DNA from: an uncultured Bacteroidales bacterium
GTDB lineage: Bacteria > Bacteroidota > Bacteroidia > Bacteroidales > CAZLJX01
NCBI GenBank assembly: GCA_964559985.1
Contig: CAZLJX010000003.1
Location: 109,416-173,415, forward strand
Length of the DNA: 64,000 bases
Direction: 5' to 3'
Shown: positions 42,091 to 64,000 of the stretch, in pieces
Layout of the letters: the number at the start of each line of letters is the position of its first letter
How positions within the stretch are numbered: the first letter of the stretch is position 1
Translations under genes and position numbers: made by a program
The notes under the pieces: model-generated
What the model was told of the DNA's origin: nothing
Seen by the model: the letters and a program-made list of their open reading frames with translations, nothing else
Database searches by the model: none

Positions 42091-42109
42091 TGTTTTTCTT
42101 TTTATGTTA

Positions 42110-42170
42110 ATACCTGTAAAAACCTGTTTCCTGGTTTTATATAATAAGGGAAACAGGATTTTACAGGTAT
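42110..42170 (+). terminator. Long near-perfect hairpin after gcvH (terminator or structured element)
   Basis: Arms ATACCTGTAAAAACCTGTTTCC (42110..42131) and GGAAACAGGATTTTACAGGTAT (42149..42170) pair at 21 of 22 positions around a 17-nt loop. Followed by TTTAATTTTC. Confidence 0.6.
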
Positions 42171-42187
42171 TTTAATTTTCTATCAAC

Positions 42188-42909: not shown

Positions 42910-43647
42910 TCAATTTACAGCATTCAATTTAGATTTTATTTCATTCAGATTTCTGTAAAATAAAATCCTGTATCTTCTTTTAATCCAATATGTTCTATTC
43001 TCATGAATGAGTGAATCAATAACAGTGTTATTCTTTTTTATCACTTCAAGCATTCTATTTAATTTGACGATACTATCCGTGAGTATATGCATTGAATTAC
43101 TGTCTGTAATGTAGAATTTTAGTGTATCTGAGTAGTAAAGAGTATCATGCCGAACTATTATCCTGTTTTGCTGTTTTCCGGTTTTATAAAAAACAGATGA
43201 AGTTTTATAGTACTTATTGTTTTCCAATAGATTGTTTATAGTTAGTTTTGCTTCAGATACGTAATCACCTCCATTTATTTTTTTGACCCGGTTGCCCATC
43301 TGATTGAATATTAATATTGTAGGTGTATAAGTTATACCATCAAGATATCCAAGCATCAACGACACAGGCCTTTTATCATAATCTCTGTCATAACGGTTTT
43401 TTGTCAAGTTAATCTGATGAAGTATAACATATTGATTTTCTTTAAAGTATTTTATTAATTCTTTGTTAATCAGTTTACATGGGCCACATGTATGTGTAGA
43501 ATAAATGAATATATTCACTTTCCCAGGATGACATAAGCTGCTGAGGTTGTAAGCAACCTCACTTCCGTCGTATTCAAAAACAGTGATTTGCGCATTTATA
43601 AATGAGCTAATAAAGGCAAAAATTATTAATATTGTTATTCTTTTCAT
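42910..43647 (-). CDS. Exported thioredoxin-fold protein with C-terminal helical extension
   Basis: 245 aa with a signal peptide MKRITILIIFAFISSFINAQ, a CxxC active-site-like motif THTCGPCK and a cis-Pro-like TPTILIF block. The C-terminal ~100 aa is unassigned. Confidence 0.65.
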   Translation of the reverse strand: MKRITILIIFAFISSFINAQITVFEYDGSEVAYNLSSLCHPGKVNIFIYSTHTCGPCKLINKELIKYFKENQYVILHQINLTKNRYDRDYDKRPVSLMLGYLDGITYTPTILIFNQMGNRVKKINGGDYVSEAKLTINNLLENNKYYKTSSVFYKTGKQQNRIIVRHDTLYYSDTLKFYITDSNSMHILTDSIVKLNRMLEVIKKNNTVIDSLIHENRTYWIKRRYRILFYRNLNEIKSKLNAVN

Positions 43648-43650
43648 TTT

Positions 43651-44265
43651 TTAATTATTATCGTTAAAATCAATACCTGGCATACAACCACATTCACTTA
43701 TAGGTTTGAGAATGAGATTATCATGAGGGCTCCCATCAGGGCAACGCCCATGATAAACGTAGGTTGAATCGTATACTACATTATCTAATTGATAACTAAA
43801 CTCCTGCGTATAATAATACTGGTGGCATTTTGAACACCTATGTATTCTGCTCGGCGCTTTCACAGAGCCTTTACACCAAAATTTTGGGTCCCGGATTAAG
43901 TTTAAAAAATCAGGATGAACGAGCACTAAATCTTTATTCAAAGAATAAGTAAGTATATAAGATTCCCCTTTCCAATCAACAAACTGAAATTCGATGTTTC
44001 GTGCTCGTACCTTTATAACCAAGCCTTTAGCCTTTGCTGATGATGTTTGTATTTTCCCAGCAACATCATAAAATAAGAAAGTCGGATAAATACACTCGTT
44101 TGACAGACTATAATTAGCTGCAGAACTTATGGTTAATAATTCATCATTCGATTTTTGTATAAAGTCATCAACCGACAATGTACAAACTTCCTCATCGCAT
44201 AAAATCTGGCTATAGGTAATTTGGCTGTACATTACAACAATCAGAAAAATTATTTTTGATTTCAT
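43651..44265 (-). CDS. Exported Cys-rich protein, unknown function
   Basis: 204 aa with a signal peptide MKSKIIFLIVVMYSQITYSQ and nine Cys (LCDEEVC, HRCSKCH, GRCPDG, ECGCMPG). Its start overlaps the upstream stop (ATGA at 44262..44265). Confidence 0.6.
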   Translation of the reverse strand: MKSKIIFLIVVMYSQITYSQILCDEEVCTLSVDDFIQKSNDELLTISSAANYSLSNECIYPTFLFYDVAGKIQTSSAKAKGLVIKVRARNIEFQFVDWKGESYILTYSLNKDLVLVHPDFLNLIRDPKFWCKGSVKAPSRIHRCSKCHQYYYTQEFSYQLDNVVYDSTYVYHGRCPDGSPHDNLILKPISECGCMPGIDFNDNN

Positions 44266-45161
44266 GGTATTATTTTATTGAGGTTACTTTTTAATTCAAG
44301 TATTTTCATTAGTTTATCCTTCCGGTCATATTTTAAATAAATGGCTTCCAGGCCATCGTAATAGTGTATCAAACTGTACTTTACAATTTCATCTTGTGGA
44401 TTTTGAAGGAAATACTTTATTAATCTTTGATGAAGCTGACCAGTTTTATTAATATATTTAGTTAAATCTACTCCACGATTTGCCTTTGAATCCAGGTACA
44501 AAATTGAATCGGTAAGGCGATATAAAAGGGCCGATTGATTATGAATTTCTACCCTATTTTCAAGACTTTGAAGCTTACCCATCAGCAAATTATTCGCCAA
44601 ATTCAAGCTATCAATGGTTTTTGAATTTGTTTTTTTAATTCTTTTATTTTTAGCAAATTCTTCATTCATTTTTTCTATAACATGCTGCTTCAGGAGCATT
44701 TCTTCGTGCAAATACTTAAGCGTTCGGCTTCGGCGGGTCTTCTCAGTACCACAATTACAAAACAAGGGATATACAGGTTCAGCATTAATATCTTTCTGCG
44801 CTCCAACCAGCAAATAAACCTGCCCAAAAAAATTTTGCGGAAGAACGGGATATTGACACAAAACTTTATATTGAATAGCGTTTGAGAATTGAACCTGCAT
44901 ATTATTTATTTCTCTTCTTACCCCAACATAATTTATTTTTCTTCCTGTCAATTGGCCAATTTTAAATTCTACATCATCCATAGCATCCAGGTAGGCACTT
45001 TTCATATTAATGCCTGATCCCGAAGCGACAAAAACCTCTATTGTGCTATTACTTGGCGGCTTTTTAAATATCCACCCAGGAAGCTTTTGTGAAAAACCCT
45101 GGGCACAAAAAACACAAAGCATGAAAAAAATGGCAGCTATCAAAACCAGCTGCCATTTCAT
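44262..45161 (-). CDS. Exported protein, LPP20-like N-terminal region plus coiled coil, unknown function
   Basis: Likely start Met13 (MKWQLVLIAAIFFMLCVFCAQG, ATG 45161) rather than 45197. The segment VFVASGSGINMKSAYLDAMDDVEFKIGQL loosely resembles LPP20-type lipoproteins. Confidence 0.5.
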   Translation of the reverse strand: MKWQLVLIAAIFFMLCVFCAQGFSQKLPGWIFKKPPSNSTIEVFVASGSGINMKSAYLDAMDDVEFKIGQLTGRKINYVGVRREINNMQVQFSNAIQYKVLCQYPVLPQNFFGQVYLLVGAQKDINAEPVYPLFCNCGTEKTRRSRTLKYLHEEMLLKQHVIEKMNEEFAKNKRIKKTNSKTIDSLNLANNLLMGKLQSLENRVEIHNQSALLYRLTDSILYLDSKANRGVDLTKYINKTGQLHQRLIKYFLQNPQDEIVKYSLIHYYDGLEAIYLKYDRKDKLMKILELKSNLNKIIP

Positions 45162-45168
45162 TTTCGCT

Positions 45169-45921
45169 TTATTGAATAACCAACGAATCAGCCACATGTT
45201 GTTGCGTTTTATTCAGCTCATTATCAATCTCTTGCCACAGCCTCTCTTCATTAAAATCAACCTCCATTGATTTACGTTGATCGGCTATCGCTTTTTTTAT
45301 CGTTGATTTTCCGACACTAACAGTTATGTAACATTTATAGCTGCCATTTTTTAGCTGAGACATTTCCTGACAGGTAACTTTAAGATACTTGTTAATGGCA
45401 TTCCGGCTCGATTCAAATACTCCCGATTGAATTCTAGATATGTCTTTGGTCGCTCCACCGGCAACGTGAGTGTCAGATAGATACCTCTTTACGCCTTGTT
45501 TATAGGCTCCTGCCCATAATTGCATTAAGTTGGCTTTAGCCTGGCTATAAGCGGTATTATAAGCATCATTTTCCTGAAGTGATACTGATGAAATACCAGT
45601 TGCCCATATAACATCCATTGATGTATCTACCTGAAAACAAGGCACGTAAACAGACCTCTCGTTTACCGGAAGTTGTTTTTTTGCCAAAAAATTGCGTAAT
45701 GCAATCAACTCTGCATTGCGTTTCTCATCCGCAATTTTTGCTTCGAAAAACTGTTGCTTTGATTGTTCAGCCAGCCGTTGCTTTTCCAAAACCTGGCGGG
45801 TTCTTACTATCTCCAGACTATCCTGGATAATTCCACGCCGATACTGGGCGTTTTTTACTACGTTACACCCTATTATAAAAAGGAGGGCGATAACTAAAAT
45901 AATCATTTGTTTCATAGGCAA
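45169..45921 (-). CDS. Lipoprotein, LPP20-like, unknown function
   Basis: 250 aa with a lipobox LLFIIGC. The segment VIWATGISSVSLQENDAYNTAYSQAKANLMQL resembles the LPP20 family pattern. First gene of a four-gene operon. Confidence 0.5.
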   Translation of the reverse strand: MPMKQMIILVIALLFIIGCNVVKNAQYRRGIIQDSLEIVRTRQVLEKQRLAEQSKQQFFEAKIADEKRNAELIALRNFLAKKQLPVNERSVYVPCFQVDTSMDVIWATGISSVSLQENDAYNTAYSQAKANLMQLWAGAYKQGVKRYLSDTHVAGGATKDISRIQSGVFESSRNAINKYLKVTCQEMSQLKNGSYKCYITVSVGKSTIKKAIADQRKSMEVDFNEERLWQEIDNELNKTQQHVADSLVIQ

Positions 45922-45993
45922 TTAATTTTTAATATTTGAGTAATTCCTGTGTCCCGGATTTTGTCTTTGCAGAAGGCTCCGTTTTCCCCCTGT

Positions 45994-46019
45994 TATTTCA
46001 ACTTCCTGGAAATGAAATA
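45994..46019 (-). terminator. Hairpin between the HD-led operon and the exported-protein operon
   Basis: TATTTCA-ac-TTCC-t-GGAA-a-TGAAATA, 12 nt after the stop at 46031. There is no U-tract, so its function is uncertain. Confidence 0.3.
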
Positions 46020-46030
46020 CATCTGATTCT

Positions 46031-46561
46031 TCATATGTTTGATTTGTTAATATTTGATAAAATCGTTTCGACAGTTATTCCAAGTGTGTAAGCAAGAATG
46101 TAACGGTATTCCTTTAGTCTATCGATTTCAAACTTGAGTTGCTTATTCTTTATTCTGTAGGCCAAATTAATTTTTTGGCTTATGTGGTATCGCAAATCAT
46201 TAGTAGATATGCTAATATCACAGTTATTCATACCGTAACAATGCAATTCTTCCTTAAAAAAATACCGGTAACATTCATTAGCAATTCTCAGCAGCGCACC
46301 TTTATCATTATTGAAAGATAAAACGGGCTGGCCTCCTAACTTTATGAGCCTTTTTACTAAAATCGCATACAAAAAGGCAGCCGAAATATCTTTAACCAAC
46401 TGTTTATCAGTAATTAAACTAGACAAAATGGTCACCGGGTGTTCGTAAGCCGGGTTGCTGGCAACTACCCTGATAAATTCAATTATCGCTTCAGAAAGCA
46501 TTTCAAAATCGTCCGCGGTATAAATATGAAGAAAACAATATTTTAAATCTTCCTTTTCCAT
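46031..46561 (-). CDS. Hypothetical cytoplasmic protein (176 aa), third gene of the HD-led operon
   Basis: Track ORF with no signal peptide, TM helix or motif I recognise. Its ATG lies 1 nt after the upstream stop (TAA-T-ATG). Confidence 0.55.
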   Translation of the reverse strand: MEKEDLKYCFLHIYTADDFEMLSEAIIEFIRVVASNPAYEHPVTILSSLITDKQLVKDISAAFLYAILVKRLIKLGGQPVLSFNNDKGALLRIANECYRYFFKEELHCYGMNNCDISISTNDLRYHISQKINLAYRIKNKQLKFEIDRLKEYRYILAYTLGITVETILSNINKSNI

Positions 46562-46562
46562 A

Positions 46563-46931
46563 TTAATTGAGGCTTATCGGTATTAAATTTTCGTAGGCTT
46601 CAGCTATACGCTGAGATAGCTTATATTTTTTTATTTTGTTATTTTTCAACATATTTATGAAAAATGAATCGTTTGCTCTAAAAAGCATCACCTTGCAGGT
46701 AAGATACTTCAGCTCTTCTTCACACAAAAAGAAATTGGGTTTCAGCAATCTCACGATATACAATTGCTCGGTAACCCGACATAGCCATTGATATTCAATT
46801 ACTTGCTTCTTGCTCCAAATAATATTTCCCTGCAGTTTTTCTTCTTCGTATATTAATAATATGAGCAGAAGCTTGTCAATGAGCCATGAAGTAAAGGCAG
46901 CATTTTCTATGTTTTGAACTATCTCTCTCAT
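46563..46931 (-). CDS. Hypothetical cytoplasmic protein (~122 aa), second gene of the HD-led operon
   Basis: The track starts at TTG 46937. ATG 46931 (MREIVQNIE..) is the likelier start. Either lies within 7 nt of the upstream TGA. No recognisable motif. Confidence 0.55.
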   Translation of the reverse strand: MREIVQNIENAAFTSWLIDKLLLILLIYEEEKLQGNIIWSKKQVIEYQWLCRVTEQLYIVRLLKPNFFLCEEELKYLTCKVMLFRANDSFFINMLKNNKIKKYKLSQRIAEAYENLIPISLN

Positions 46932-46938
46932 AATCAAA

Positions 46939-47448
46939 TCAATTTATTAATTTCTCTAATTCCTTGTATAGTAATGGATTATATTTTCCCAGGCGTTCAG
47001 CAAGAAACCGACTTTCGTTTTTGTAATAATTTATTTTGTCCTCACTCCATGATAATCTTGGATTGGTGAGGTTTGCAAGACGGTCAGCCAATTTTACTAC
47101 TGCTGTTTCACGGCAACGTGTTTCAATGATTCTTTCGATACTATCTTCAATCTGATCCGTTTTTTTCAGACTTTTATCTTTGGACAGTCCTAAAACGGCA
47201 GGAAGAATCTCAATAAAGCCATAACGTGTTAAATCGTCGGAGGTGCAAGGGGTGTCTTCAATGATATCGTGCAGATAACCAATGTTAATGGCAAGCTCCA
47301 GATTAAAATCCTGCTTTTTAACATATGTCAATCGCAGAATTTTTTCTATCTTGCAAAGGTGACCATCGTAATAAGATATCCCCTCGGGCAGATAAAACTG
47401 ATTTCGGTGGTACCATTTCGCTAAAAGTTTTGCATTCATATTTGACAT
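46939..47448 (-). CDS. HD-domain protein of the RelA/SpoT hydrolase type (small alarmone hydrolase-like)
   Basis: 169 aa. AKWYHRNQF..YYDGHL, then IGYLHDIIEDTPCT and VKLADRLANL, match the H...HD(x)2ED...D and KLADRL blocks of the (p)ppGpp hydrolase domain. There is no synthetase domain. Confidence 0.65.
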   Translation of the reverse strand: MSNMNAKLLAKWYHRNQFYLPEGISYYDGHLCKIEKILRLTYVKKQDFNLELAINIGYLHDIIEDTPCTSDDLTRYGFIEILPAVLGLSKDKSLKKTDQIEDSIERIIETRCRETAVVKLADRLANLTNPRLSWSEDKINYYKNESRFLAERLGKYNPLLYKELEKLIN

Positions 47449-47453
47449 TTTTG

Positions 47454-47526
47454 ATTCAAATATATTGAATTTTTTTATCCGATATAACTGATAATCAATA
47501 CTTTAACTAGACGTCTATAAGACGTC
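47454..47526. promoter_or_regulatory. Divergent control region with palindromic elements
   Basis: The intergenic region is 87 bp. It holds an inverted repeat ATTCAA-atata-TTGAAT (47454..47470), which contains a minus-strand TATATTTG -7-like box. It also holds two copies of the palindrome GACGTC (47510..47515 and 47521..47526) spaced 11 bp centre to centre, ending 9 nt before the ATG of the large NTPase gene. Confidence 0.35.
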
Positions 47527-47535
47527 CAAACGTAT

Positions 47536-50500
47536 ATGCCACCAAAATCAAATAAACCGATAACATCAACACAAGCAAAGATTTTAATTTTAGAACTCCT
47601 AAAAAATCAGGATCGGGAAATAGCTGATTTATTATATGAATTTCTATCATCACAAAAAGATAAAAACCAAATAAGTAAGCATGCTGCTTTTACAAAAGCA
47701 TATTCAAAACCACAGATTTTTATTGATGATCTACCAAAATTCTCGACTAAAAAAGATCGTAATGAATGGCCAGCATGGCAGAAAATTTTTCATGATTTAA
47801 AACCTGATACCTTCAAATTTGTAGAAAGAAAACCTCCTAATGAGATACGCAAAAAGATAAAGCAATACCTCATAAATCAACAAACAATTAATATCGCTGA
47901 TACGGATTTTTGGTCTCCTTCATTATCTCCCGAACTAAATGTTTTAACCCCAAGGGAGGAAGAAGTTGATAAATTATGCAGCTTTTTATTTAAAAAAAAT
48001 AAAATAACCATCTATTATGGAAACCCCCGTATCGGAAAATCTGAGATAATTAACCAATTGATTAGAAAATTAAAAAAAACTGAAAATAATTTCAGATACC
48101 GGATCCTGGATTGCAAGACGATAGATATAAGTGAAGAAAAACCATTTAGCAAAACCGATGATTTTTTTATGCGCCTGATTGATAATACCAGGTACTTGCT
48201 TATCTTAGAAAATGCTGAAGTACTTAATTTTAATAATTCAAAAATTGGTAGTTTTTTAAGTCGGTTGGCAGACCAAAGCAACAATAAGCAATTGAATTTA
48301 TTGATCATAAGCAGAATTAGAAATGATATTTTAAGTGTTGATAATGAGCATCTTAATATAATTGAATCGGAGCAATTCATCAACCCTGAAATTTTAAATA
48401 ATATTAAACAAATAATAAATAATGATGGTATTTTTATTACATTGATTGAACTTTATGACCATCACCGGCTGCACGTTGGCTTGTTGCAGAAAATAAAGCA
48501 ATCAGAAAATGAGGTTGGCCAATTATTAGAAATGGCTGAGAATAAAGATGTACTTAACCTGCTTAAAGATGATTATGCCGAACAATTCAATACTTTAAAT
48601 GATCCCGAGAAAAAATTCTTCATTACCAGCATTATAACCGGTAAAGTAGTTTTGAAAACAAACAATGATAAAGTCATCGCAAATAGCATTTGTTCAAAGG
48701 GCCTTTTTGACCGGACTTATAATAATGGCTATATCATTCATCCATACATTGCTGAAATAGCTTTTGAATTTTATAAAGAAAAAAAAGAGCTACATAAGAT
48801 TGCTGAACTAATTGTAACAGAATTAAACTTTAACGGGTCTTACTTTGAAAGCTTTATTATCTGTGCTAAATGTGATTTGACTAGTATTGATAACGAAGTA
48901 AAAGATTATATCACGCATTGTACCTTAAAGGAAATCAAGCACTTGAGCTCAGACCCTAACTATAATGTCGTTATTCTAAAAGCTATTATTAAATATAACA
49001 CAGATAAAGCCTTGCTGTTACTACTGGCTGAAAATTATAGATTGGCCGGGAAACTTTCTGAAGCAACTACCTACTTAGATAAAGTCAAAGATGATAAAAC
49101 AATGGCTTTTGGTTACAATACCGAATTGGGTTTTTATTTTAACGCAAAGGCTAATGAATCAAGATCAAACAATGATAAAGAGAAATATATAACATTCGCA
49201 AAAGGAGCTTTCGAAAAAGCAATTTCACTTCCATTAACTGAAAAACTTGCAGGCGAGAATGCCATCAACCGTTATCTTCAGCCTGTAATTGGTTTATATA
49301 ATTTAAATCCAGCCCCGGAAAAACAATTTGAAATCCTTTTTAACGCCTTTTGCGACCTGCATGCATATGACCAGAATTTGCCATTATATTATTTTGAGAA
49401 ATTAACTGCTTTTTTAAATACCCAACATACTCTTAATCAAAACTTTACAAAGTTCACGGAGTGTATCATATTTTATAAAAACAGGAAATTTAAAAAAGCC
49501 TATGCGATAATTCAAGAACTCGATAAAATCTCATTATTCAGTCAACAATTAATTTTTATCAATATTAAAGCCGCAGGCCTTAGAACATCGAACCCAGAAG
49601 AATCAGAAAAACTGCTTAAATCAAGTATTGAAAAAGAGAATAATGCAGAATACAACAGAATGGCATACAGGGAATTATTATTGACTTACTTTGTTAATGG
49701 TATGCTCAATAAGATTGAGTCAGATTCAGCTTTAAAATCAAATCAAGATATAATCGTTGAGGTTGCCCTGGAAGCACCTATTTGGTGGTTTGCAAAAATT
49801 ACTGACAACAATAAAAAAATAAAAGTACTTACATTCTTTAATAATAATTATAAGGAGGAGTTTAAAAATAACGGTTTATCAGACTGGTTATATGCCCAGA
49901 TAATCAAATCTTTTTTAGATGCAGGCATTAATGAAATTGATAAATACCTGCACGAACCTTGTATTCCTGATCCAAAGTCTTTTTCTGACCAAGAAGTTAA
50001 AAAAATAATTCCCATTTTACAATCTAAAATTATCGATAACCCAGATTTAATCTACCCACTGGCTCTTTTTTCATCCACCAATCAACATTATGAACAATTA
50101 CTCAGTTATTGTAATGAAATCTCAACTTTTAATGCAGAAAATTATCATTTTTTAAAATTGCTATGCAAATTAGCTGTAGACTTAAAAGACGAAAAATATA
50201 TTCCCCAACTTTCAAAAATTGATTCTTCAATTGCCAAAAATTTTTCTTATGAATTTTACCATGCAGCATTAATACTTGAAAAAACAGGCAAATATAGCTT
50301 GGCTGATGATTTTTTTAACAAAGCCATACTTCATGCATCTGAACCCGATTTTAATATGTTCTTTCATTATGCCTTCTATCTTTTAAGAAATTCAGATGTA
50401 AGTAACTTTAAAGTTCAAATTAGTGAGGCAAAAAAAAGCTGGATGTCTTCAAGATTACCAACCGACCGCCAGAGTAAACATCATGAAAAATGGTTCAATT

Positions 50501-51951
50501 TGCTCATCAAAAGCTATTTTATTAATTATGGCTTTTTCATTCATAGACCCGATAGAAATTTATTAACTAAATATAAGTCAGAGATCGATAATATTAAAAA
50601 TGAATATGATATTGATGTTAACGTGCTATACTACAGGTGGTTTGCTGACAATGGCAGTGAAAAAGAAAAAAAAGCAAATATTATAAAATTGAACAATTGG
50701 TGTAAGGATAACAAGCAATACTGGCCAACCCAAGGATTGACAGTTCAAAACTCAACAGAAATTATAAACAGTGAATCAGAAAAAGAAAAGTCTACTCATG
50801 AAAATACCTATAATCAAGCAAATAAACATTTCAACGATGGTTCTTATTCAAACGCTTTTGATTTATATTTAAAACTGGCTTTTGAAGGTTATTCACCTGA
50901 CAACAATAGGAAACAGGTGTTTTTTAATAATTTAATTTTTAGCAGTATAAGATCAGGAAAAGAAATTAATATTGCCGATATCCATGAAGAATTGTTGTTA
51001 GATGTGGGAAAAACCTATAAAAGTCTAAAGATAATGGATAAAAACATTGAATGTTTAGAAAAAATACCATCAAACCATAAAGATTATTATTCCTCATCTG
51101 TCATTCTTGCCAGAATATATCTCGAAGAAAACAATCTTATTGAAGCTGGCAAATATTTAAAAATCAATAAACTAAATAAAAAAGATCCGGAAAGTTTAAT
51201 AACCTATGCAGCACTGCTGGATGCTAAAAATAATTTTAAAGAAGCACTTACTTGCATAGACATGGCATTCAACAGCACACACGATTATGGCACATTAAAA
51301 TACAGGAGAAATCTGATTAAACGACATCCTGATGCTTTTCAATCTGATGAAAAGAAAATTACAGAGCTATTATACAAAATTGTACCGTTTATTAAGAATA
51401 AAAATTATAATTTATCCGATACGCAAATCATTGATTTAATAAGCTTAACAAAAAAACATCCTGATCATTTTGTGCTGGCCAGAAAAGCACTTCATATTAT
51501 TAATCATACAAGTAATGGATCAGGGCTAAAAAATTATGACGAAGAATTTGCAGAAATATTAGTCAACCATTACTTCTTTGGGATTTCTGAATTTTATAAA
51601 TTTTCTGTTTATATGAATGCCCCTGATGATGAATATTTTCATTTTTACAGAATGTTGGGTAACTTCTGCAAAGGGTGTAAATACTATCATATAGCCGAGT
51701 ACTTTTACCAGCATGCCTTATCAGTCATTAAAAATGATAAAAATAAAAAAGGTGTGATCAATTTAAACCTTGCCCTTCTGTACTATGAAAAAATTAAAAA
51801 TCACCAATCAGAAGATGAATTGAGGAAATTAAATTTGTTTAAATCAGAGGCAGAAAAATACTTTACAGAAACACGCAATAATGAAAAGCTTGTTCATTGC
51901 AACAATTTAACACTTGATTTAAATAAATTGAATCATGTGAATGATAATTAA
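47536..51951 (+). CDS. Giant STAND/AAA_16-type P-loop NTPase with long TPR-like C-terminal region
   Basis: 1471 aa. LTPREEEVDKLCSFL precedes the Walker A motif GNPRIGKS (48019..48042), and a Walker B-like YLLILENAE lies at 48196..48210. About 1100 aa of helical repeat sequence with TPR-like units follows (e.g. AENYRLAGKLSEATTYLDKV, ILARIYLEENNLIEAGKYLKI, NLALLYYEKIKN). The N-terminal ~140 aa is unassigned. Confidence 0.7.
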   Translation: MPPKSNKPITSTQAKILILELLKNQDREIADLLYEFLSSQKDKNQISKHAAFTKAYSKPQIFIDDLPKFSTKKDRNEWPAWQKIFHDLKPDTFKFVERKPPNEIRKKIKQYLINQQTINIADTDFWSPSLSPELNVLTPREEEVDKLCSFLFKKNKITIYYGNPRIGKSEIINQLIRKLKKTENNFRYRILDCKTIDISEEKPFSKTDDFFMRLIDNTRYLLILENAEVLNFNNSKIGSFLSRLADQSNNKQLNLLIISRIRNDILSVDNEHLNIIESEQFINPEILNNIKQIINNDGIFITLIELYDHHRLHVGLLQKIKQSENEVGQLLEMAENKDVLNLLKDDYAEQFNTLNDPEKKFFITSIITGKVVLKTNNDKVIANSICSKGLFDRTYNNGYIIHPYIAEIAFEFYKEKKELHKIAELIVTELNFNGSYFESFIICAKCDLTSIDNEVKDYITHCTLKEIKHLSSDPNYNVVILKAIIKYNTDKALLLLLAENYRLAGKLSEATTYLDKVKDDKTMAFGYNTELGFYFNAKANESRSNNDKEKYITFAKGAFEKAISLPLTEKLAGENAINRYLQPVIGLYNLNPAPEKQFEILFNAFCDLHAYDQNLPLYYFEKLTAFLNTQHTLNQNFTKFTECIIFYKNRKFKKAYAIIQELDKISLFSQQLIFINIKAAGLRTSNPEESEKLLKSSIEKENNAEYNRMAYRELLLTYFVNGMLNKIESDSALKSNQDIIVEVALEAPIWWFAKITDNNKKIKVLTFFNNNYKEEFKNNGLSDWLYAQIIKSFLDAGINEIDKYLHEPCIPDPKSFSDQEVKKIIPILQSKIIDNPDLIYPLALFSSTNQHYEQLLSYCNEISTFNAENYHFLKLLCKLAVDLKDEKYIPQLSKIDSSIAKNFSYEFYHAALILEKTGKYSLADDFFNKAILHASEPDFNMFFHYAFYLLRNSDVSNFKVQISEAKKSWMSSRLPTDRQSKHHEKWFNLLIKSYFINYGFFIHRPDRNLLTKYKSEIDNIKNEYDIDVNVLYYRWFADNGSEKEKKANIIKLNNWCKDNKQYWPTQGLTVQNSTEIINSESEKEKSTHENTYNQANKHFNDGSYSNAFDLYLKLAFEGYSPDNNRKQVFFNNLIFSSIRSGKEINIADIHEELLLDVGKTYKSLKIMDKNIECLEKIPSNHKDYYSSSVILARIYLEENNLIEAGKYLKINKLNKKDPESLITYAALLDAKNNFKEALTCIDMAFNSTHDYGTLKYRRNLIKRHPDAFQSDEKKITELLYKIVPFIKNKNYNLSDTQIIDLISLTKKHPDHFVLARKALHIINHTSNGSGLKNYDEEFAEILVNHYFFGISEFYKFSVYMNAPDDEYFHFYRMLGNFCKGCKYYHIAEYFYQHALSVIKNDKNKKGVINLNLALLYYEKIKNHQSEDELRKLNLFKSEAEKYFTETRNNEKLVHCNNLTLDLNKLNHVNDN

Positions 51952-57530: not shown

Positions 57531-59927
57531 TTAAATTTTCTTTTGTGTTTCAAGGACTTTGATTTCTTCCTCAAGCGCCCTGATTTGCTTTTCGAGCAAT
57601 TTATCTTCGGTAATGTCAATGACAATTAAAATAATCCGTTTTAAATCATCATATTCCATCACCGGGTTATAATGTTCTTCGAGCCATAATTCACGGGTAT
57701 GAAACTGCATATGCCTTAAACATTTCTGTTGCATGCCTTCATGCAGCGAATCGAAAATGCTTTTAAGCTGGTTTTGTTCCTCTTCTGTTTTGACAATAAC
57801 CTCATCGATCAGTTTACCAATCATCATTTCAGGAGTGCTGCCGTATGACTGAGCAAGTTTTTCGTTAATTTTTATCACAGTACCGTCAATATCGAGCTCA
57901 GCAACAAGGGTTATGACATTAATTGCAGCAAGAATACTACGCAATTCTGCTTCGCGTTTGGCAGTTTCTTCCTGCGTTGCCTGCATCTCTTCAAGGTTCT
58001 GGCGCATTTCCTCTTCCTGCTGGGCAAGTTCATCTTCAAGTTTGCGCGATTGACTTAACAACCTCTCAGTCCGTTGATTCACTTTTATACTTGCTATGGT
58101 TGATGCAATACTTTCGCCCAGTTTTTCAATAAATTCAATCTGGTAAGGTTCAAAAGGAGTAAACGAGACGATTTCAAGTACACCGTAGATATAATCGTTG
58201 AGATTGAGCGGGACTATCAGCACCGATCGTGGATTCTCAGCAATACTGAGACCCTGAACAATATACACATAATCAGGTGGAGCCTGCGGAATATAGATGG
58301 TGATTTTTTCATCAGCAGCTCTTCCAATCAATCCTTCACCGGTATAAACCCGTGCATCGAAAAGTTTGCGTCGTCCATAAGCTACTACCGATGCCAGGTC
58401 GAAAAAGACTTCCTCCGGATTATCATCATTAACAATGAATATTCCACACTGAGCGGTTTTTGCATAATCGGCCAGGTTTTCAGCTACGCTGTGTGCCAGT
58501 GCTTCAAGATTATCGCTGTGTTCGCGCAATATTTCACCAAATTTGGCAAGGCCCTGGGTGACCCAGTTACGTTTATCATCTTCAATTTTTTTCTCCTGTT
58601 CAAGCATCTGAGCGTTGATAAGATTGTTACGCATTTCAATCAACGATTGGCCTAAAATATCTTCATCGCCAAGTGAAACAAATTCTGCTTTCAGGTCACC
58701 CTCTCCTATTTTGTTGGCAAATTCAATGGTTTTATTCAGATTGATGATTAATTCATTAATGGCAAGATTCAATGATCCTATCTCATCGCTTGTCTGTATT
58801 TTATTAATTTTTGAAACATCAATTTCTCCCTGTGACATTTCCTGCAACAGGCGGGTAGTCCGAACAACGGGAGTTACAATACTTTTTGATATAAAGGTAA
58901 TAATGAGTGTCAAGATGATTAAACCAGCCATTCCTACAAATATGTTGTAATAAAAATTGCGGTTTGAAGTTTCAATCAGGGTTCTTTGTGGCACTATCAC
59001 GGCAAACGACCAGGGTGTTGGCGCATTTCCAACAAATACCGGTGCAAACGACATATAGCAATTTTGTTTCAGGAAGGAATCATATGCGTAGAGGGAAAAC
59101 TTTTTACCGTTTTTAATATTTTCAGATATCTTATTTTTATCTATATCGCCCGTAAGAAATTCTGTAATGTTTTTTTCAATCAGTTTAGTATCGGCATGTG
59201 CCACAAAAACCCCGTTGTTGGCAACAAGATAAGCATAACCGGTGCCAAAAGGTTTTATGCCATCAATCATGTTTTTGAAGGTCTGCAAGGGGACATCAAC
59301 ACCAATTACACCCTTAAAGTTGCCATTTTTTATAATGGGTTCTATAATGTTTGTTTGCAATACTTTATCGTTGGTATCGTTGGTGTAGGAATAATAAAAC
59401 GGATTGAGTAAAGTCTCGGACCGGGTATTTTTAGGTATGGTATAGTATTCACCCTGGAAAAGCACTGTGGAAGTGTTTTCCTGCAATAACACCTGGTTTC
59501 CCTTTTTATAATAGGTTGGAGAGAAATTACCTTTGAATGTGTTTCCCGGGGTATTGATCAGCATTGCGTCAAAGTTGTCGATAGTGTTAGGTTCCCATAT
59601 TGTCCAGATAGATATAAAATCATTATTCTGCATTAATACCTTGATGATGGTTTCGCTGAAAAGAACTCTCCGTTTTTTTTCAGGGACAAGGTCATAATTT
59701 TCAAAAATCTGTTTCAGATTACGTGCAGTTACCAGGTATTGCTCAAGATTGGTTTTTACCTGTCTGGCATTTTGCATAGCGTTATTATCGGCCATGGTGA
59801 TGGTATTACGCAGTGTTTGTCTTTTCAGGCTGAGGCTGATATATCCGATTGATATTCCGTATATCACCAGCGAGGTGGCCAGGATAAAAAGCATCATGCG
59901 TGTATTGAGTTTGAGTCGTAGCTTCAT
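57531..59927 (-). CDS. Membrane sensor protein: Cache-like periplasmic domain, TM, HAMP (x2), GAF, coiled coil, PAS; no output domain
   Basis: 798 aa with two TM helices flanking a ~290-aa extracytoplasmic region. HAMP (VVRTTRLLQEMSQGEIDV..SDEIGSLNLAINELI), GAF (GLIGRAADEKITIYIP..VLIVPLNLNDYIYGVLEIVSF), an acidic coiled coil (QQEEEMRQNLEEMQATQEE) and PAS. The protein ends right after the PAS domain. Confidence 0.75.
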   Translation of the reverse strand: MKLRLKLNTRMMLFILATSLVIYGISIGYISLSLKRQTLRNTITMADNNAMQNARQVKTNLEQYLVTARNLKQIFENYDLVPEKKRRVLFSETIIKVLMQNNDFISIWTIWEPNTIDNFDAMLINTPGNTFKGNFSPTYYKKGNQVLLQENTSTVLFQGEYYTIPKNTRSETLLNPFYYSYTNDTNDKVLQTNIIEPIIKNGNFKGVIGVDVPLQTFKNMIDGIKPFGTGYAYLVANNGVFVAHADTKLIEKNITEFLTGDIDKNKISENIKNGKKFSLYAYDSFLKQNCYMSFAPVFVGNAPTPWSFAVIVPQRTLIETSNRNFYYNIFVGMAGLIILTLIITFISKSIVTPVVRTTRLLQEMSQGEIDVSKINKIQTSDEIGSLNLAINELIINLNKTIEFANKIGEGDLKAEFVSLGDEDILGQSLIEMRNNLINAQMLEQEKKIEDDKRNWVTQGLAKFGEILREHSDNLEALAHSVAENLADYAKTAQCGIFIVNDDNPEEVFFDLASVVAYGRRKLFDARVYTGEGLIGRAADEKITIYIPQAPPDYVYIVQGLSIAENPRSVLIVPLNLNDYIYGVLEIVSFTPFEPYQIEFIEKLGESIASTIASIKVNQRTERLLSQSRKLEDELAQQEEEMRQNLEEMQATQEETAKREAELRSILAAINVITLVAELDIDGTVIKINEKLAQSYGSTPEMMIGKLIDEVIVKTEEEQNQLKSIFDSLHEGMQQKCLRHMQFHTRELWLEEHYNPVMEYDDLKRIILIVIDITEDKLLEKQIRALEEEIKVLETQKKI

Positions 59928-59937
59928 GGCATTTGGT

Positions 59938-62676
59938 TTATAACAATTCGCTGATGTTTTTAATCAGTTGACGTAATTCTTTTTCCACTTCTTTCCATAA
60001 TTCCTGGATTTCGGTCATTAATTCGGGAATTTCGGTCAGATTGGTTTTTTCAGTAGCATATTTTTCAATGTTTTTCGAATTATTAAGCATGGTTTTCAGA
60101 CCAAGATAGGTCATTTTTGTTTTCAGGGTGCTGGCTTTTGTACGCAACATTTCCCAGTTTTTATCCTTGTAGTACTTATCTATTTCTTCAATTTCTTCGG
60201 GAATAATGGTAATATAAAAGTTAAGGATATTATGAATTTTCTGGGCATCGCCTTTGTATACTTTTACCAGGTAATTCAGATCAATAAACTGAAGATTAAA
60301 CTCCTCGGCTACAAGACGTTCTGCAACTTTGCGTGTTTCAACTCCTTCGGTGTCGGTCAGGCGTTTCGACAGGATATCCCGTTTTTCGATCAGGCTTTTG
60401 ATTTTTTGCCTTTTATTCCGCGATTCGGTAATGTCAAAAGCAAGGCACAATACTTTTACCGGGTTACCGGTAGTGTCAAAAATGGGTGAATATGTTTCAT
60501 CGAGCCATATTTCACGGGTGGCGGTCCTGAAATACTGAATGTTGTTTTTTGTGCGTCCCTGTTTAAGTTCCATCCAGAATTCCTTCAGTTTTTCCTGTTT
60601 TTTCTCATCGGCAATGCGAAAACCAAAAGATTTGCCAATCATCTGGTCTTTATTCACTTTATATATTTTCAGCATGGCATCGTTAACATCAAGTATTTTG
60701 CCATCAATGTCATATTCAATTACCAGTAATGTATTCCTGAGTGCTTCAATGACTCCCCTCATTTCGTTTTCCCGGTTATTGGCTTCTTCCTGGGTGGCCT
60801 GCAGCTCTTCCATATTCTGGCGTATTTCCTCTTCCCGCTGAGCCAGTTCATCGGCCTGAATTTTCGATTGCTCCAGTAATGACGAAGTTTTTACATTGAA
60901 TTTTACCCGCGAAAGGGTAGCGGCAATGCTTACAGCTACTTTTTCAACAAATTTAACCTGGTAGTCTTCAAGCACCTTTATCGATTCAATTTCGAGAATA
61001 CCAACCATGACTTCGTTTAAGATCAACGGAACGATTAAAATGCATAAAGGCTTTGATTTTCCAAGTCCTGAACGGATATCAATATAATGTTCCGGAACCT
61101 CGGTAATGAAAATAGTATCTTTTTCAAGGTAACAGGTTCCCACCAGTGATTCGCCAGGTGCATAAGTCCGTTGTTCATATTTTTCTTTCCCAAAACCGAT
61201 ATACGCTTTCAATTCAATAAAAATATCTTCCGGGTCAACCTCATTAACCATGTAAATACCACCTTCAGAAGCATCGAGATAATGAATTAAAAAGCGGATG
61301 ATATCATAGGTTAGTTTGTTCAGATTATCGTTATTCTGCCTTAAAATTTTCCCGAATTCGGCAAGGCCTACCGAAGTCCAGGTAAGCTGTTCTTCAAGTT
61401 TTTTTCTTGCATCGGCTTCTTCTTTTGACCTTTTAAGGCTGTCGCGCATTTTTATAATAGCCCTGCCAAGGCTATCTTTTTCGCTCAGCTGATGATAATG
61501 TGCATCAAAATTCCCTTTTCCGAATTCACTGGCAAATGCTGCGGTAGTTTGAATGCTTTTTATCAGTGTATCAAGTGAATGCAACATGTCAGCGATTTCG
61601 TCTTTCGATTTCATTGCAACGATTTCAACATCTCTGAAATTCCCTGATGAGAGTTTCCTGATGATTTGAATGGTTCTTTTCAGCGGAATAGTAATGGTAA
61701 GCGTAATAATATATACTACAATGAATAATAGCAACAAACCAAAATATCCTATAATCCAGGCTTTTTCAAGATGGCTGGAAGTCTGGCCGGCAACAGAAGC
61801 AATATTGATTACCACAGCACAACTCCATGAGCAATCGTTTACGATTTCAACAGGGGCAAGGGAAATATAAAGACTGTCATTTCCGTTTTTATTATTCAGA
61901 TTAAAAGAAAATTTCTGCCCCGATTTTATCTTTTCTGTAACAGGTACTGCATTTTTTGAGAACAAATCGAGGCTTTGAAGGCTATTGCCAGTTTTCTCAT
62001 GCTGCGGATGGGTAACAATATCGCCCTGGGCAGATAATAAAATAACATACCCTTTTCCAAAAGGATGTAACGAATCAGTCATCCTTTGAAAACATTCAAG
62101 ATCAATACCGGCTCCAATATATCCGGCAATTTCATTATGCTTTTTCAAAGGGACAATGACATAGGAAACAAAATTCTCATCAATTTTTTTTGACGTATAG
62201 GTTTTAAAAACAGGCCTGGTAATCCATGCATCTTTTCCGGACGGAAATTTCAGATCTTCGTCAAACTGAAAAATAGTGCTTTTAGGTCTTACAAATTGCT
62301 GTACTGGCAGCAAAACTGAATCTGAACCATTAACCGATGGGTTCCAGCCAAGGCATGTGGCAACGAAGTCTTTGTTGTTCAGCAACATATTATTAAGTAA
62401 CCCACGATTAAAATCTGTATTTATCTGGTTTTCTATTGTGTTATCCTGTATTATAACATAGGAATGGGTATACAGTGAGTTAAAATACTGATTAAAAACA
62501 GACCGGAAATCTTTGGCATATTGTTGGGCATAGGCATCGGCCACAAACCTGGAGTTGGTTACAGCCGAATTTTTAAAATGGTTTATAATCAGGTTTATAG
62601 CAAGGAAATAAATCAAAGCTGAAACTCCCAGGATATACATTAGCATTTTAAAAAGTAAGCTGAATCTGATCTTCAT
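59938..62676 (-). CDS. Paralogous membrane sensor (Cache-HAMP-GAF-coiled coil-PAS) with extra C-terminal HPt-like domain
   Basis: 912 aa with the same architecture as its neighbours. It has an added C-terminus, IDLNYLVKVYKGDAQKIHNILNFY..WEMLRTKASTLKTKMTYLGLKTM, that resembles an HPt four-helix bundle. Confidence 0.75.
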   Translation of the reverse strand: MKIRFSLLFKMLMYILGVSALIYFLAINLIINHFKNSAVTNSRFVADAYAQQYAKDFRSVFNQYFNSLYTHSYVIIQDNTIENQINTDFNRGLLNNMLLNNKDFVATCLGWNPSVNGSDSVLLPVQQFVRPKSTIFQFDEDLKFPSGKDAWITRPVFKTYTSKKIDENFVSYVIVPLKKHNEIAGYIGAGIDLECFQRMTDSLHPFGKGYVILLSAQGDIVTHPQHEKTGNSLQSLDLFSKNAVPVTEKIKSGQKFSFNLNNKNGNDSLYISLAPVEIVNDCSWSCAVVINIASVAGQTSSHLEKAWIIGYFGLLLLFIVVYIITLTITIPLKRTIQIIRKLSSGNFRDVEIVAMKSKDEIADMLHSLDTLIKSIQTTAAFASEFGKGNFDAHYHQLSEKDSLGRAIIKMRDSLKRSKEEADARKKLEEQLTWTSVGLAEFGKILRQNNDNLNKLTYDIIRFLIHYLDASEGGIYMVNEVDPEDIFIELKAYIGFGKEKYEQRTYAPGESLVGTCYLEKDTIFITEVPEHYIDIRSGLGKSKPLCILIVPLILNEVMVGILEIESIKVLEDYQVKFVEKVAVSIAATLSRVKFNVKTSSLLEQSKIQADELAQREEEIRQNMEELQATQEEANNRENEMRGVIEALRNTLLVIEYDIDGKILDVNDAMLKIYKVNKDQMIGKSFGFRIADEKKQEKLKEFWMELKQGRTKNNIQYFRTATREIWLDETYSPIFDTTGNPVKVLCLAFDITESRNKRQKIKSLIEKRDILSKRLTDTEGVETRKVAERLVAEEFNLQFIDLNYLVKVYKGDAQKIHNILNFYITIIPEEIEEIDKYYKDKNWEMLRTKASTLKTKMTYLGLKTMLNNSKNIEKYATEKTNLTEIPELMTEIQELWKEVEKELRQLIKNISELL

Positions 62677-62685
62677 TTTCCTGTA

Positions 62686-64000
62686 TTATTTACCGGTTTT
62701 TTTATGTAGCATATTTTCAGTTATATCAACAGCAATATTGATTACTTTATAGGGATTTCCGTTAGCATCGGGAATAGGAGCATAAATTTCTGACAACCAT
62801 TTTTCTTCGCCTTTCAGGGTCAGTATTTTTTGAATTTTCTTTTGGGTATTGTTATTCCTGAGTTCGTTCCAGAACATTTCTTTTTCATGTTTATCTTCCA
62901 TATTATCAGAAAATGACCCCTGGTAACGTCCTACCATTTGTTCACGTGTGCAACCCAATAGGTCTAAGAAATTGCTGTTTATTTCAATAATTTTTCCGTT
63001 CAGGTCAAATTCGGCAACAAGCGAAATATCATAAATAGAATCAATAATGGCTTTCATTTCCGATTCACGTTTGGCTGTTTCTTCCTGTGTGGCATGCATT
63101 TCTTCCATGGTTTGCCTCATTTCTTCTTCCTGCTGGGCAAGCATATCGGCCTGCTCGCGTGATTGTTGCAGAAGTGCAGCTGTTTTTTCATTCATTTTGA
63201 CACTTGAAATGGTAGAGGCAATAATTTCACCGATACGTTCACAAAATTCAATTTTATATTTGTCGAGTTGATGAAACGAAGCCAGCTCCATCACGCCCAG
63301 CACTTCATCATTCAGTTTCAGGGGTACAAGTAATAAGCAGGTAGGATTAGCCGTTCCGAGTCCTGAAGTTATTTTAACATAATTTTTCGGAACATCAATC
63401 ATATAAATGGTTTCTTTTTCAAAAGCACACCTTCCTATCATCCCTTCGCCCTGGATAACTTGCTTTTTATCGGTACGGATACGGCCGTATGCTATGGCTG
63501 CTGTCATTTCAAAGTAAATGTTTTCAGGATCGTTGTCGTTCAGAATGTACACCGAACCGATAGGGATATCGATATAGGAAATCAGGTTTTTGACAATTTC
63601 GAACGATAACTGTTTTATATCATTGGTATACGAACGCAATATCTCACCCATCCGGGTTATTCCGGTGGTTATCCACTTTTGTTTCTCTTCTTCTGATTTG
63701 CGTTTTTCTTCTTCTTCGCGGGCATTGATGAGGCTTTTTTGCATCTCGATAAGCGATTTGCCGATACTATCCTCTTCGCTTAGTAATTCAAAATGGGCAT
63801 TCAGATTTCCTTTTCCGATTTGTGTGGCAAATTGTGCAGTACGGCCCAGGCTGTCCATTAAAGTATTGACCGATGTTGCCATCTGTCCAAGTTCATCCTG
63901 CGATTGAATGCCTATATGCGAAGTCGTATCAATTTTTCCCAATGCAAGATTTTTTAGTACTTCTATGGTATGAATAAGCGGGTTGGTGATATTACGGGCA
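62686..64000 (-). CDS. Third paralogous sensor (HAMP-GAF-coiled coil-PAS), N-terminus beyond the right window edge
   Basis: The track starts it at TTG 63942, but the frame stays open to nt 64000 (..ARNITNPLIHTIEVLKNLALGKIDTTSHIGIQSQDELGQMATSVNTL is a HAMP domain). The gene is therefore truncated by the window. Confidence 0.8.
   Translation of the reverse strand, partial: ARNITNPLIHTIEVLKNLALGKIDTTSHIGIQSQDELGQMATSVNTLMDSLGRTAQFATQIGKGNLNAHFELLSEEDSIGKSLIEMQKSLINAREEEEKRKSEEEKQKWITTGITRMGEILRSYTNDIKQLSFEIVKNLISYIDIPIGSVYILNDNDPENIYFEMTAAIAYGRIRTDKKQVIQGEGMIGRCAFEKETIYMIDVPKNYVKITSGLGTANPTCLLLVPLKLNDEVLGVMELASFHQLDKYKIEFCERIGEIIASTISSVKMNEKTAALLQQSREQADMLAQQEEEMRQTMEEMHATQEETAKRESEMKAIIDSIYDISLVAEFDLNGKIIEINSNFLDLLGCTREQMVGRYQGSFSDNMEDKHEKEMFWNELRNNNTQKKIQKILTLKGEEKWLSEIYAPIPDANGNPYKVINIAVDITENMLHKKTGK

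Follow-up and report, generated by a model that had tools for sequence, protein, structure and literature searches.

The locus described here occupies positions 46,031–51,951 of a 64,000-nucleotide stretch of DNA from an uncultured Bacteroidales bacterium (contig CAZLJX010000003.1), the whole of which is called the window below. It is best described as a lineage-restricted locus in which a divergent small alarmone hydrolase (SAH) is encoded next to a large P-loop and helical protein that has no detectable relatives and bears an arms-race signature. The large protein is the product of gene D (47536–51951, + strand), an open reading frame (ORF) of 1471 amino acids. The hydrolase is the product of gene A (46939–47448, − strand), an ORF of 169 amino acids, or 166 if the second ATG is used, which diverges from D across 87 bp (47449–47535). 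Two further ORFs follow A on its own strand: gene B (46563–46937, −; 124 amino acids with a TTG start or 122 with an ATG start) and gene C (46031–46561, −; 176 amino acids). The gap between A and B is 1 nt with the TTG start of B or 7 nt with its ATG start, and that between B and C is 1 nt; junctions as short as these suggest that A, B and C are translationally coupled.

A first-pass annotation, made from the sequence alone, had proposed these four genes as a candidate undescribed defence or stress-signalling module. Its ORFs, motifs, gene junctions and low G+C content are all borne out in the sequence. The module itself is neither refuted nor substantively supported, and stands as a plausible but unproven conflict-type locus. 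The picture preferred here, tentatively and at rather less than even confidence, is that of a STAND-like sensor of phage ligands (D; STAND, signal transduction ATPase with numerous domains) encoded beside a trio led by an alarmone hydrolase (A-B-C). Functional coupling between the two halves is a separate proposition and is unlikely at best; beyond adjacency and a conserved palindrome, nothing functionally ties D to A-B-C.

Gene D Is Maintained and Evolves Rapidly

Gene D is a real gene that has been selected to stay open. At its composition a random codon is a stop in 8.3% of cases, and the chance probability of an ORF of 1471 codons is ~1e-55. Between the window and a related strain (L037), 161 substitutions and 6 indels are spread over 957 codons, and all 6 indels are multiples of three. 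No stop has arisen where a neutral simulation expects 9.1, and 0 of 2000 simulations remained stop-free.

The open frame encloses a protein that changes quickly. The ratio of nonsynonymous to synonymous divergence (dN/dS) is 0.87 against strain L037 (955 codons), 1.15 against strain L002 (640 codons) and 0.88 for the C-terminal 394 codons against strain L057, versus 0.03–0.22 for the flanking housekeeping genes at similar synonymous divergence (dS). Sliding windows of 100 codons range from ~0.3 to 2.3, with several above 1 across residues 154–404, the P-loop core included, and the N-terminus of D has a dN/dS of 1.26. At the DNA level, strains differ three times as much in D as in the flanks. 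An ORF kept open, motifs that are conserved and a mean dN/dS of ~1 fit what would be expected of diversifying selection, as in an arms-race or immune-type sensor.

Three other features of the D alleles were observed. The ratio of transitions to transversions among between-strain differences is 0.50 in D, 0.65 in A-C and 1.26–1.63 in flanking housekeeping DNA. A 40-residue block, KAISLPLTEKLAGENAINRYLQPVIGLYNLNPAPEKQFEI (residues 561–600; 49216–49335, +), is 100% identical in three strains though the overall dN/dS of D is ~1; this block may mark a functionally key site or else a tract that recombined recently. Lastly, the assemblies of the related strains (L002, L037, L038 and L057) all end within D, at residues 148, 641 and 957 and at 394 residues before the stop, and these contig breaks fit within-sample allele heterogeneity of D.

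A P-loop Core in Gene D

Near its N-terminus D holds the motifs of a P-loop NTPase. The Walker A motif GNPRIGKS spans residues 162–169 (48019–48042, +; K168); in three strains its G, G, K and S do not vary, the one change being at an x position (R165C). A Walker B-like strand, LLILEN (residues 221–226; 48196–48213, +), lies ~57 amino acids away, has Glu instead of Asp, and is invariant in the same three strains. Both motifs had been named in the first-pass annotation, and both hold up at canonical spacing. Upstream of them, REEE (residues 140–143; 47953–47964, +) is also invariant in three strains and falls within the ATPase_2 match (residues 140–226); we take it to be the Arg-Glu motif that ATPase_2, AAA_16 and MalT-type NTPases carry ahead of the P-loop in their 'GRExE' helix. 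Downstream, the equally invariant LLIISR (residues 255–260; 48298–48315, +), a strand in the low-confidence model, is a candidate sensor-1 strand ending in Ser-Arg at the position of the STAND hhhhT/S-R motif, on a reading of the motif only. A hydrophobic strand precedes Walker A, and hhhhE and hhhhSR strands follow it at canonical spacing.

The conservation of these motifs exceeds that of their surroundings. In three strains, 28 of the 30 motif positions of the P-loop core are invariant, compared with 74.6% of positions in the background (hypergeometric P = 0.008), and the G....GK[ST] pattern is expected ~0.01 times by chance in a protein of D's composition, by our own estimate. Profile matches to the core stay below their cut-offs: the best are ATPase_2 (19.2 bits, cut-off 33.2), nSTAND3 (16.1, cut-off 27.2), nSTAND6 (15.3, cut-off 27.7) and NB-ARC (13.0, cut-off 23.5). 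The sub-threshold matches are mostly of AAA+ or STAND class (ATPase_2 in three of three strain variants, AAA_14, AAA_22, nSTAND3/5/6, NB-ARC and NPHP3_N), and they recur across the three strain variants. The AAA_14 and AAA_22 matches run from Walker A past Walker B, while that to ATPase_2 starts at the Arg-Glu motif and, on fragment 131–500, reaches Walker B. Profile searches of the PDB gave noise only for residues 131–500 and noise or nothing for residues 1–150. No clear GxP motif was seen after the P-loop, and the helical and winged-helix modules expected there in a STAND protein could not be made out in a model whose predicted local distance difference test (pLDDT) score is 34.

The remainder of D had been described as about 1100 amino acids of TPR-like repeats, a description not confirmed in that form. 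The sole stretch that scores as TPR-like is residues 1167–1250 (51034–51285, +), about 85 amino acids long, which matches TPR_19 (E 2.6e-4; 21.7 bits against a cut-off of 25), ARM_TT21 (E 3.2e-4) and ANAPC3 (E 0.05), all under the Pfam cut-offs. Residues 492–519 give a TPR-type match at noise level, and self-BLAST found no internal repeats in D.

No DNA-binding domain of the HTH, LuxR or OmpR type was detected at either end of D, even at E-values up to 1, and the alternative named in the first-pass annotation as one that would overturn its proposal, a MalT/LAL-type transcription factor with a DNA-binding N-terminus, is accordingly not what the domain searches found. The annotation's remark that D carries no recognisable effector domain agrees with the family searches, which detected none. 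Its assignment of D to the STAND NTPases stands in part: the conserved P-loop core is upheld, and the class is not, with no family model at threshold, a structural model at pLDDT 34 and an alignment with MalT confined to the P-loop. By its sequence, D is a cytoplasmic protein with an unassigned N-terminus of ~140 amino acids, a P-loop NTPase core and ~1100 amino acids of presumably helical sequence. It appears to resemble a STAND protein in outline, and yields no profile match above threshold, the sole objective test of membership available.

Gene A, a Predicted Small Alarmone Hydrolase

By its sequence, A is a divergent stand-alone hydrolase of the RelA/SpoT type with intact catalytic motifs. 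Essentially over its full length, from residue 8 to 164, it aligns with the Pseudomonas aeruginosa SAH (PaSAH, PDB 6yvc) at E 8.3e-12, the best match among solved structures, followed by Drosophila Mesh1 (3nqw, E 2e-8) and by human MESH1 and Rel hydrolase domains (3nr1, 5vxa, 1vj7). Among family models, A matches TIGR00691 (E 3e-9) and phrog_990 (E 9e-19). The definitions and roles of the HD motifs in SAHs have been described (PMC9293644). In A, the HD3/HD4 motifs are found in LHDIIEDT (residues 59–66, with H60 D61 and E64 D65; 47251–47274, −) and the HD5/HD6 motifs in KLADRLAN (residues 119–126, with D122 and N126; 47071–47094, −), as placed by sequence and alignment. The catalytic HD2–HD6 residues H30, H60/D61, E64/D65, D122 and N126 are all present and are invariant in three strains. 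These structural and family matches, together with the intact catalytic residues, support the earlier identification of A as a RelA/SpoT HD hydrolase.

The arginine of HD1, a residue that stacks on the base, is missing from A, which has Tyr19 at that position in an 'HRNQ' context. PaSAH, which has the same 'HRNQ' context, carries Leu at the position of the HD1 arginine and is still active (PMC9293644), so the absence of this arginine does not exclude A from the SAHs. A resembles PaSAH and Mesh1 further in being a single-domain protein of similar size. It differs from the solved SAHs in being only ~25–30% identical to them, as estimated from the alignment, in heading an operon with two proteins of no known family, and in having no match to Pfam HD_4 (PF13328), a family that relatives of A at 28–39% identity do reach; its match to HD (PF01966) scores 20.6 bits against a cut-off of 22. 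A dN/dS of 0.17–0.29 places A under purifying selection.

Genes B and C

B and C are maintained as genes and match no recognised family. The ORF of B is kept in four strains with one in-frame indel of two codons, and C was found in five contigs, where its indels are in frame and include a 15-codon deletion in one strain; dN/dS is 0.44–0.51 for B and 0.43–0.56 for C. As the first-pass annotation had supposed of both proteins, neither has a match in Pfam, NCBIfam, PADLOC or the PDB, and PHROGs returned noise-level matches only. A low-confidence model of C, described below, gave no Foldseek match below E 0.79, and this search was disregarded. A shared adaptor domain between the N-terminus of D and B or C, of the kind that effector-associated domains provide, was considered and rejected on hhalign probabilities of 0.1–1.7%.

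The Divergent Intergenic Region

The 87 bp between D and A are conserved in four strains except for a 10-bp indel, which gives a length of 87–97 bp. A Bacteroidota-type −7 box, TATATTTG (47464–47457, −), lies 8 nt before the ATG of A and is a putative promoter element of this gene. Nine nucleotides upstream of the start codon of D is a palindrome, AGACGTCT-ATA-AGACGTC (47509–47526), which is perfect, unique in the window (0 expected by chance) and identical in four strains. It folds as a hairpin at −8.8 kcal/mol, and is a candidate operator or 5'-untranslated-region hairpin.

Base Composition and Distribution

The locus is part of an AT-rich stretch: G+C content is 29–33% over 43–52 kb and ~38–44% in the flanks. 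G+C content at third codon positions (GC3) is 0.27 in D, 0.35–0.40 in A-C and ~0.40–0.43 in housekeeping genes. The AT-richness of what had been called an accessory insert is thus upheld; its status as an insert is not, with no integrase, tRNA or flanking repeat found and no relative with an empty site. Among the rnhB-anchored loci of 34 GTDB genomes no empty site was found, and none of these loci shares any neighbouring gene, so neither an empty site nor an ancestral synteny can be inferred from them. An unusually low dS, as a sign of recent transfer of D and A-B-C, was considered and proved wrong, the dS of the module being equal to that of housekeeping genes. An Rfam scan of 42.5–52.8 kb gave sub-threshold chance matches only. 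It is plausible but unproven that the locus is a lineage-restricted, AT-rich chromosomal stretch of a poorly sampled Bacteroidales-like bacterium that holds two neighbouring conflict-type units.

As far as the searches reach, the D | A-B-C arrangement is restricted to one narrow and rarely sampled lineage. An exhaustive phmmer search with residues 1–620 of D as query, residues 621–1471 lying outside it, recovered D itself only from 1.84 billion cluster representatives, and a word-indexed homology search likewise returned D itself only. Nothing was found with D in JGI metagenome scans, in IMG/VR scans or by tblastn against plasmids and phages, with an alignment of C in JGI metagenomes, or with C and B in IMG/VR. 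A word-indexed search with a concatenated B+C query gave two relatives of C, both within the lineage; the same query missed B's own cluster, which is present in the collection, and its negative for B is unreliable. For A, one relative at 95% identity belongs to its own lineage and the others are ~25–40% identical. D and C have no detectable relatives beyond the lineage in which linkage of the four genes could be followed.

Within the lineage, three to four related metagenomic strains (L002 with L057, L037, and L038–L040) have DNA identities from 86.6% (L002) to ~94–98% (L037), and the order D | A-B-C is identical in every related contig. The host itself is poorly sampled: its RNase HII (rnhB) is at most 66% identical to that of any GTDB species representative, and its housekeeping proteins fall in clusters of three members.

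Comparison with Known Systems

A comparison of D with large sensor NTPases finds likenesses in layout and differences in detail. Like Avs, STAND and nSTAND proteins, D exceeds 1000 amino acids, has its P-loop towards the N-terminal end and continues into a very long C-terminal arm that is presumably helical or TPR-like; it also shares with them rapid evolution, low G+C content and the sub-threshold matches to nSTAND3/5/6, NB-ARC and NPHP3_N. Unlike Avs, D matches no Avs or other PADLOC model and has no recognisable N-terminal effector, and unlike STAND proteins it has no detectable homologues and no match at threshold. MalT/LAL and AfsR regulators are similar to D in their P-loop and long helical arm, in motifs resembling 'RE..E', 'GKS/T' and 'hhhhSR', and in divergence from a candidate target operon with a palindrome in the shared intergenic region. 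They differ from it in their LuxR- or OmpR-type domain, E. coli MalT aligns over 18 P-loop columns, and a dN/dS of ~1 is a further difference. On its sequence, D cannot be filed as Avs, as MalT/LAL or under any PADLOC family, and known-system detection agrees with the earlier view of the locus as undescribed, the PADLOC models leaving it unclassified.

Gene A invites comparison with the SAHs of toxic small alarmone synthetase (toxSAS) systems such as FaRel/ATfaRel, being a stand-alone SAH in a tight operon with small partners. There is no RelA/SpoT synthetase domain in B, in C or anywhere in the window, and because no synthetase is present A-B-C is not a toxSAS-SAH module.

Pairings of an SAH-like protein with an ATPase occur on plasmids. 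In three Nostoc and Tolypothrix loci (L060 6684–8432, L061 6809–8474 and L062 4657–6378), the gene for a DUF3696 ABC ATPase of 361 amino acids, with a match to PADLOC NsnB (Menshen) at E 2e-104, is followed directly by one for an SAH-like HD_4 protein 38–41% identical to A. The pair sits among HNH, DUF262 and GIY-YIG genes. No PADLOC model gives a convincing match to the HD protein, and the two genes may represent a two-gene variant, Menshen-like or PARIS-like, whose partner is an HD protein. For NsnB, regulation of an effector bound to it has been suggested (PMC12065111). These HD proteins are the closest relatives of A in annotated records and are paired with an ATPase of defence type. The arrangement differs in that the ATPase is a 361-aa ABC/DUF3696 protein, co-directional with and upstream of the HD gene, and in that B and C are absent; D, with its Walker A–B spacing of ~57 amino acids and no NsnB match, falls outside this class.

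A second pairing was observed on a megaplasmid of Burkholderia sp. JSH-S8 (L064 1143–7154), where co-directional genes encode an SbcD-like exonuclease, a 1156-aa SbcC/SMC-like ATPase, an SAH-like HD_4 protein and a DUF429 protein. The ATPase has weak matches to the LmuB/PtuA N-terminus, and the DUF429 protein matches PDC-S44 at E 8.5e-10.

Proposed Mechanism and Alternatives

In the preferred picture, D would be a STAND-like nucleotide switch in which a P-loop core lies between a short N-terminus and a very long helical arm. That arm would recognise a ligand that changes rapidly, most likely a protein of a phage or another invader; once the ligand is bound, the P-loop core would be free to mediate NTP-dependent oligomerisation, with output either through the N-terminal ~140 amino acids or through partner proteins. 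A would be an active hydrolase, dependent on Mn2+, that cleaves the 3'-pyrophosphate off (p)ppGpp and/or (p)ppApp, and B and C would be two small helical proteins translationally coupled to it. For D, we infer the STAND class, the sensing of a ligand and the role in defence. The suggestion that the operon may supply effector or immunity functions in trans follows from adjacency and no other feature of the sequence. In favour of coupling, the closest SAH relatives of A in PLSDB, those of the Nostoc and Tolypothrix plasmids, adjoin a defence-type ABC ATPase, and the Burkholderia relative follows an SbcC-like one. The constant gene order, if only among close relatives, the conserved intergenic region with its unique palindrome, and the −7 box ahead of A also speak for a link.

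Other results weigh against this picture. For D, no P-loop, STAND or TPR family model reaches threshold, an AlphaFold model of residues 1–520 made with no alignment is unusable (pLDDT 34), and hhalign with residues 1–400 of E. coli MalT gives a probability of 1.8% with only 18 P-loop columns aligned. Residues 1–140 have no domain match and no effector domain is recognisable in the protein. Its dN/dS of ~1, drawn from three alleles only, could come partly from relaxed constraint. For the operon, the AlphaFold model of C, all-helical, is of low confidence and unusable (pLDDT 48). The Pfam hits of genes lying up to 10 kb away on each side include no RelA/SpoT synthetase (PF04607), and tblastn with E. 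coli RelA found no match in the window. For the locus as a whole, PADLOC returned mad8 only (E 1.3e-3, 16 bits), and the AT-rich stretch shows no mobile-element hallmarks, with no integrase, tRNA or flanking direct repeat bounding an insert. The conserved gene order carries little weight, all contigs being close relatives. As for coupling, the N-terminus of D shares no domain with B or C, other SAH relatives occur in contexts without any ATPase, and the GC3 of A-C, nearer the genome value than that of D, argues weakly against joint acquisition.

The main alternative is that D and A-B-C are two unrelated neighbours, a serious possibility that still falls short of probable. A-B-C, perhaps together with four genes for exported proteins described below, would then carry an orphan SAH that trims (p)ppGpp or (p)ppApp for housekeeping or guards against the (p)ppApp-synthetase toxins of competitors, and D would be an independent, fast-evolving protein. 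Orphan SAHs that lack a cognate toxin are documented: PaSAH is not linked to type VI secretion system genes (PMC10083569), and XccSAH is another (PMC9765508). The lack of a synthetase nearby, the differences between A-C and D in GC3 and dN/dS, the lack of a domain common to D and B or C, and the fact that most SAH relatives elsewhere are not beside a large NTPase all point the same way. Against unrelated neighbours stand their tight divergent pairing across a conserved 87–97-bp intergenic region with its palindrome, their constant order in all related strains, and the two independent SAH-ATPase pairings elsewhere. The palindrome, perfect, unique and kept in all strains 9 nt before the start of D, lends itself to another explanation, namely that D is a MalT/AfsR-like signal-transducing ATPase regulator that binds it and controls the SAH operon when the helical arm senses a ligand. 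Divergent layouts are typical of regulator-target pairs, and AfsR-type regulators have an N-terminal domain, a P-loop and a long helical or TPR arm, a layout that D may share by analogy. This reading is nonetheless quite doubtful, given the lack of an HTH, LuxR or OmpR-type domain at either end of D, the low hhalign probability with MalT, and a dN/dS of ~1 (1.26 at the N-terminus) that is unusual for a DNA-binding regulator.

Other explanations turn on the operon or on the P-loop itself. Toxic alarmone synthetases have SAHs among their antitoxins (PMC7229694; PMC10083569), and by analogy A-B-C might be a toxin-antitoxin-like unit in which B or C is a new growth-arresting toxin, the SAH its antidote, and D incidental or a trigger. 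The short junctions that suggest translational coupling and the small partners without a family match suit such a unit, which is improbable all the same: neither B nor C has a RelA/SpoT synthetase signature, and C is all-helical in its low-confidence model, unlike the alpha/beta fold of a synthetase. That all four genes form one undescribed defence system, in which D, a hypervariable STAND-like sensor, would when triggered unleash or recruit B and C as effectors, with pyrophosphorylated nucleotides or tRNA as their targets and A as the antidote or reset enzyme, is a long shot. D might, finally, be a large helical scaffold rather than an NTPase, its Walker-like motifs fortuitous. Every P-loop family match lies under threshold, the PDB profile search gave noise only, and there are no homologues in which motif conservation could be followed over deep time. 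Yet this is very improbable in view of the low chance expectation of the Walker A pattern (~0.01), the hydrophobic strand before it and the hhhhE and hhhhSR strands after it at canonical spacing, the invariance of the motifs while 25% of D positions vary (P = 0.008), and the span of the AAA_14 and AAA_22 matches from Walker A to beyond Walker B and of ATPase_2 from the Arg-Glu motif.

The importance of the locus depends on which of these explanations holds. Should D prove to be an immune-type nucleotide switch, it would found a protein family without detectable relatives among ~15 billion predicted proteins, and would show that under-sampled Bacteroidales lineages hold defence-like genes invisible to current detectors. 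If the SAH operon works with D, alarmone hydrolysis would be linked to a STAND-type sensor, a link of which a limited literature check found no published description. A four-gene system would be a new wiring of alarmone chemistry into innate immunity in Bacteroidota. Unrelated neighbours would leave a divergent orphan SAH beside a lineage-specific hypervariable gene, of local interest only. The importance would rise sharply only with coupling or a phenotype shown.

Neighbouring Genes

Downstream of C, four exported or lipoprotein-like genes occupy 42910–45921 (−) and encode products of 250, 311, 204 and 245 amino acids, the last with a CGPC thioredoxin-like motif; one of the four products has a Cys-rich C-terminus. 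They lie within the AT-rich stretch, are tightly packed and occur in the same order in strains L002 and L037. No terminator was predicted in the 110-nt gap after C, and these genes may be co-transcribed with A-B-C in a longer operon. Of the three-gene operon first proposed, the tight A-B-C junctions are confirmed, and the limit of three genes is not, as four genes on the same strand follow across this gap.

The spacer itself (45922–46030, −; 110 nt) is well conserved between strains, folds at −19.9 kcal/mol and has no Rfam match. An ORF of 39–40 amino acids is called in this spacer in other strains, and its frame is not kept in the window, where a stop follows after 13 codons. Relative to strain L002, the dS of the four exported-protein genes is 0.39–1.17, compared with 0.06–0.18 for housekeeping genes, a pattern suggesting that recombination has replaced alleles of surface-exposed proteins.

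Farther from the locus, just downstream of a ribonucleotide reductase gene, 57531–63942 (−) encodes three large sensor proteins in succession, which carry dCache, GAF and PAS domains and have no output domain among their hits. On the other side, between gcvH and ispD, 42109–42171 holds a 23-nt inverted repeat whose arms, 17 nt apart, are 96% complementary, and which probably serves as a terminator in both directions or as a regulatory hairpin.

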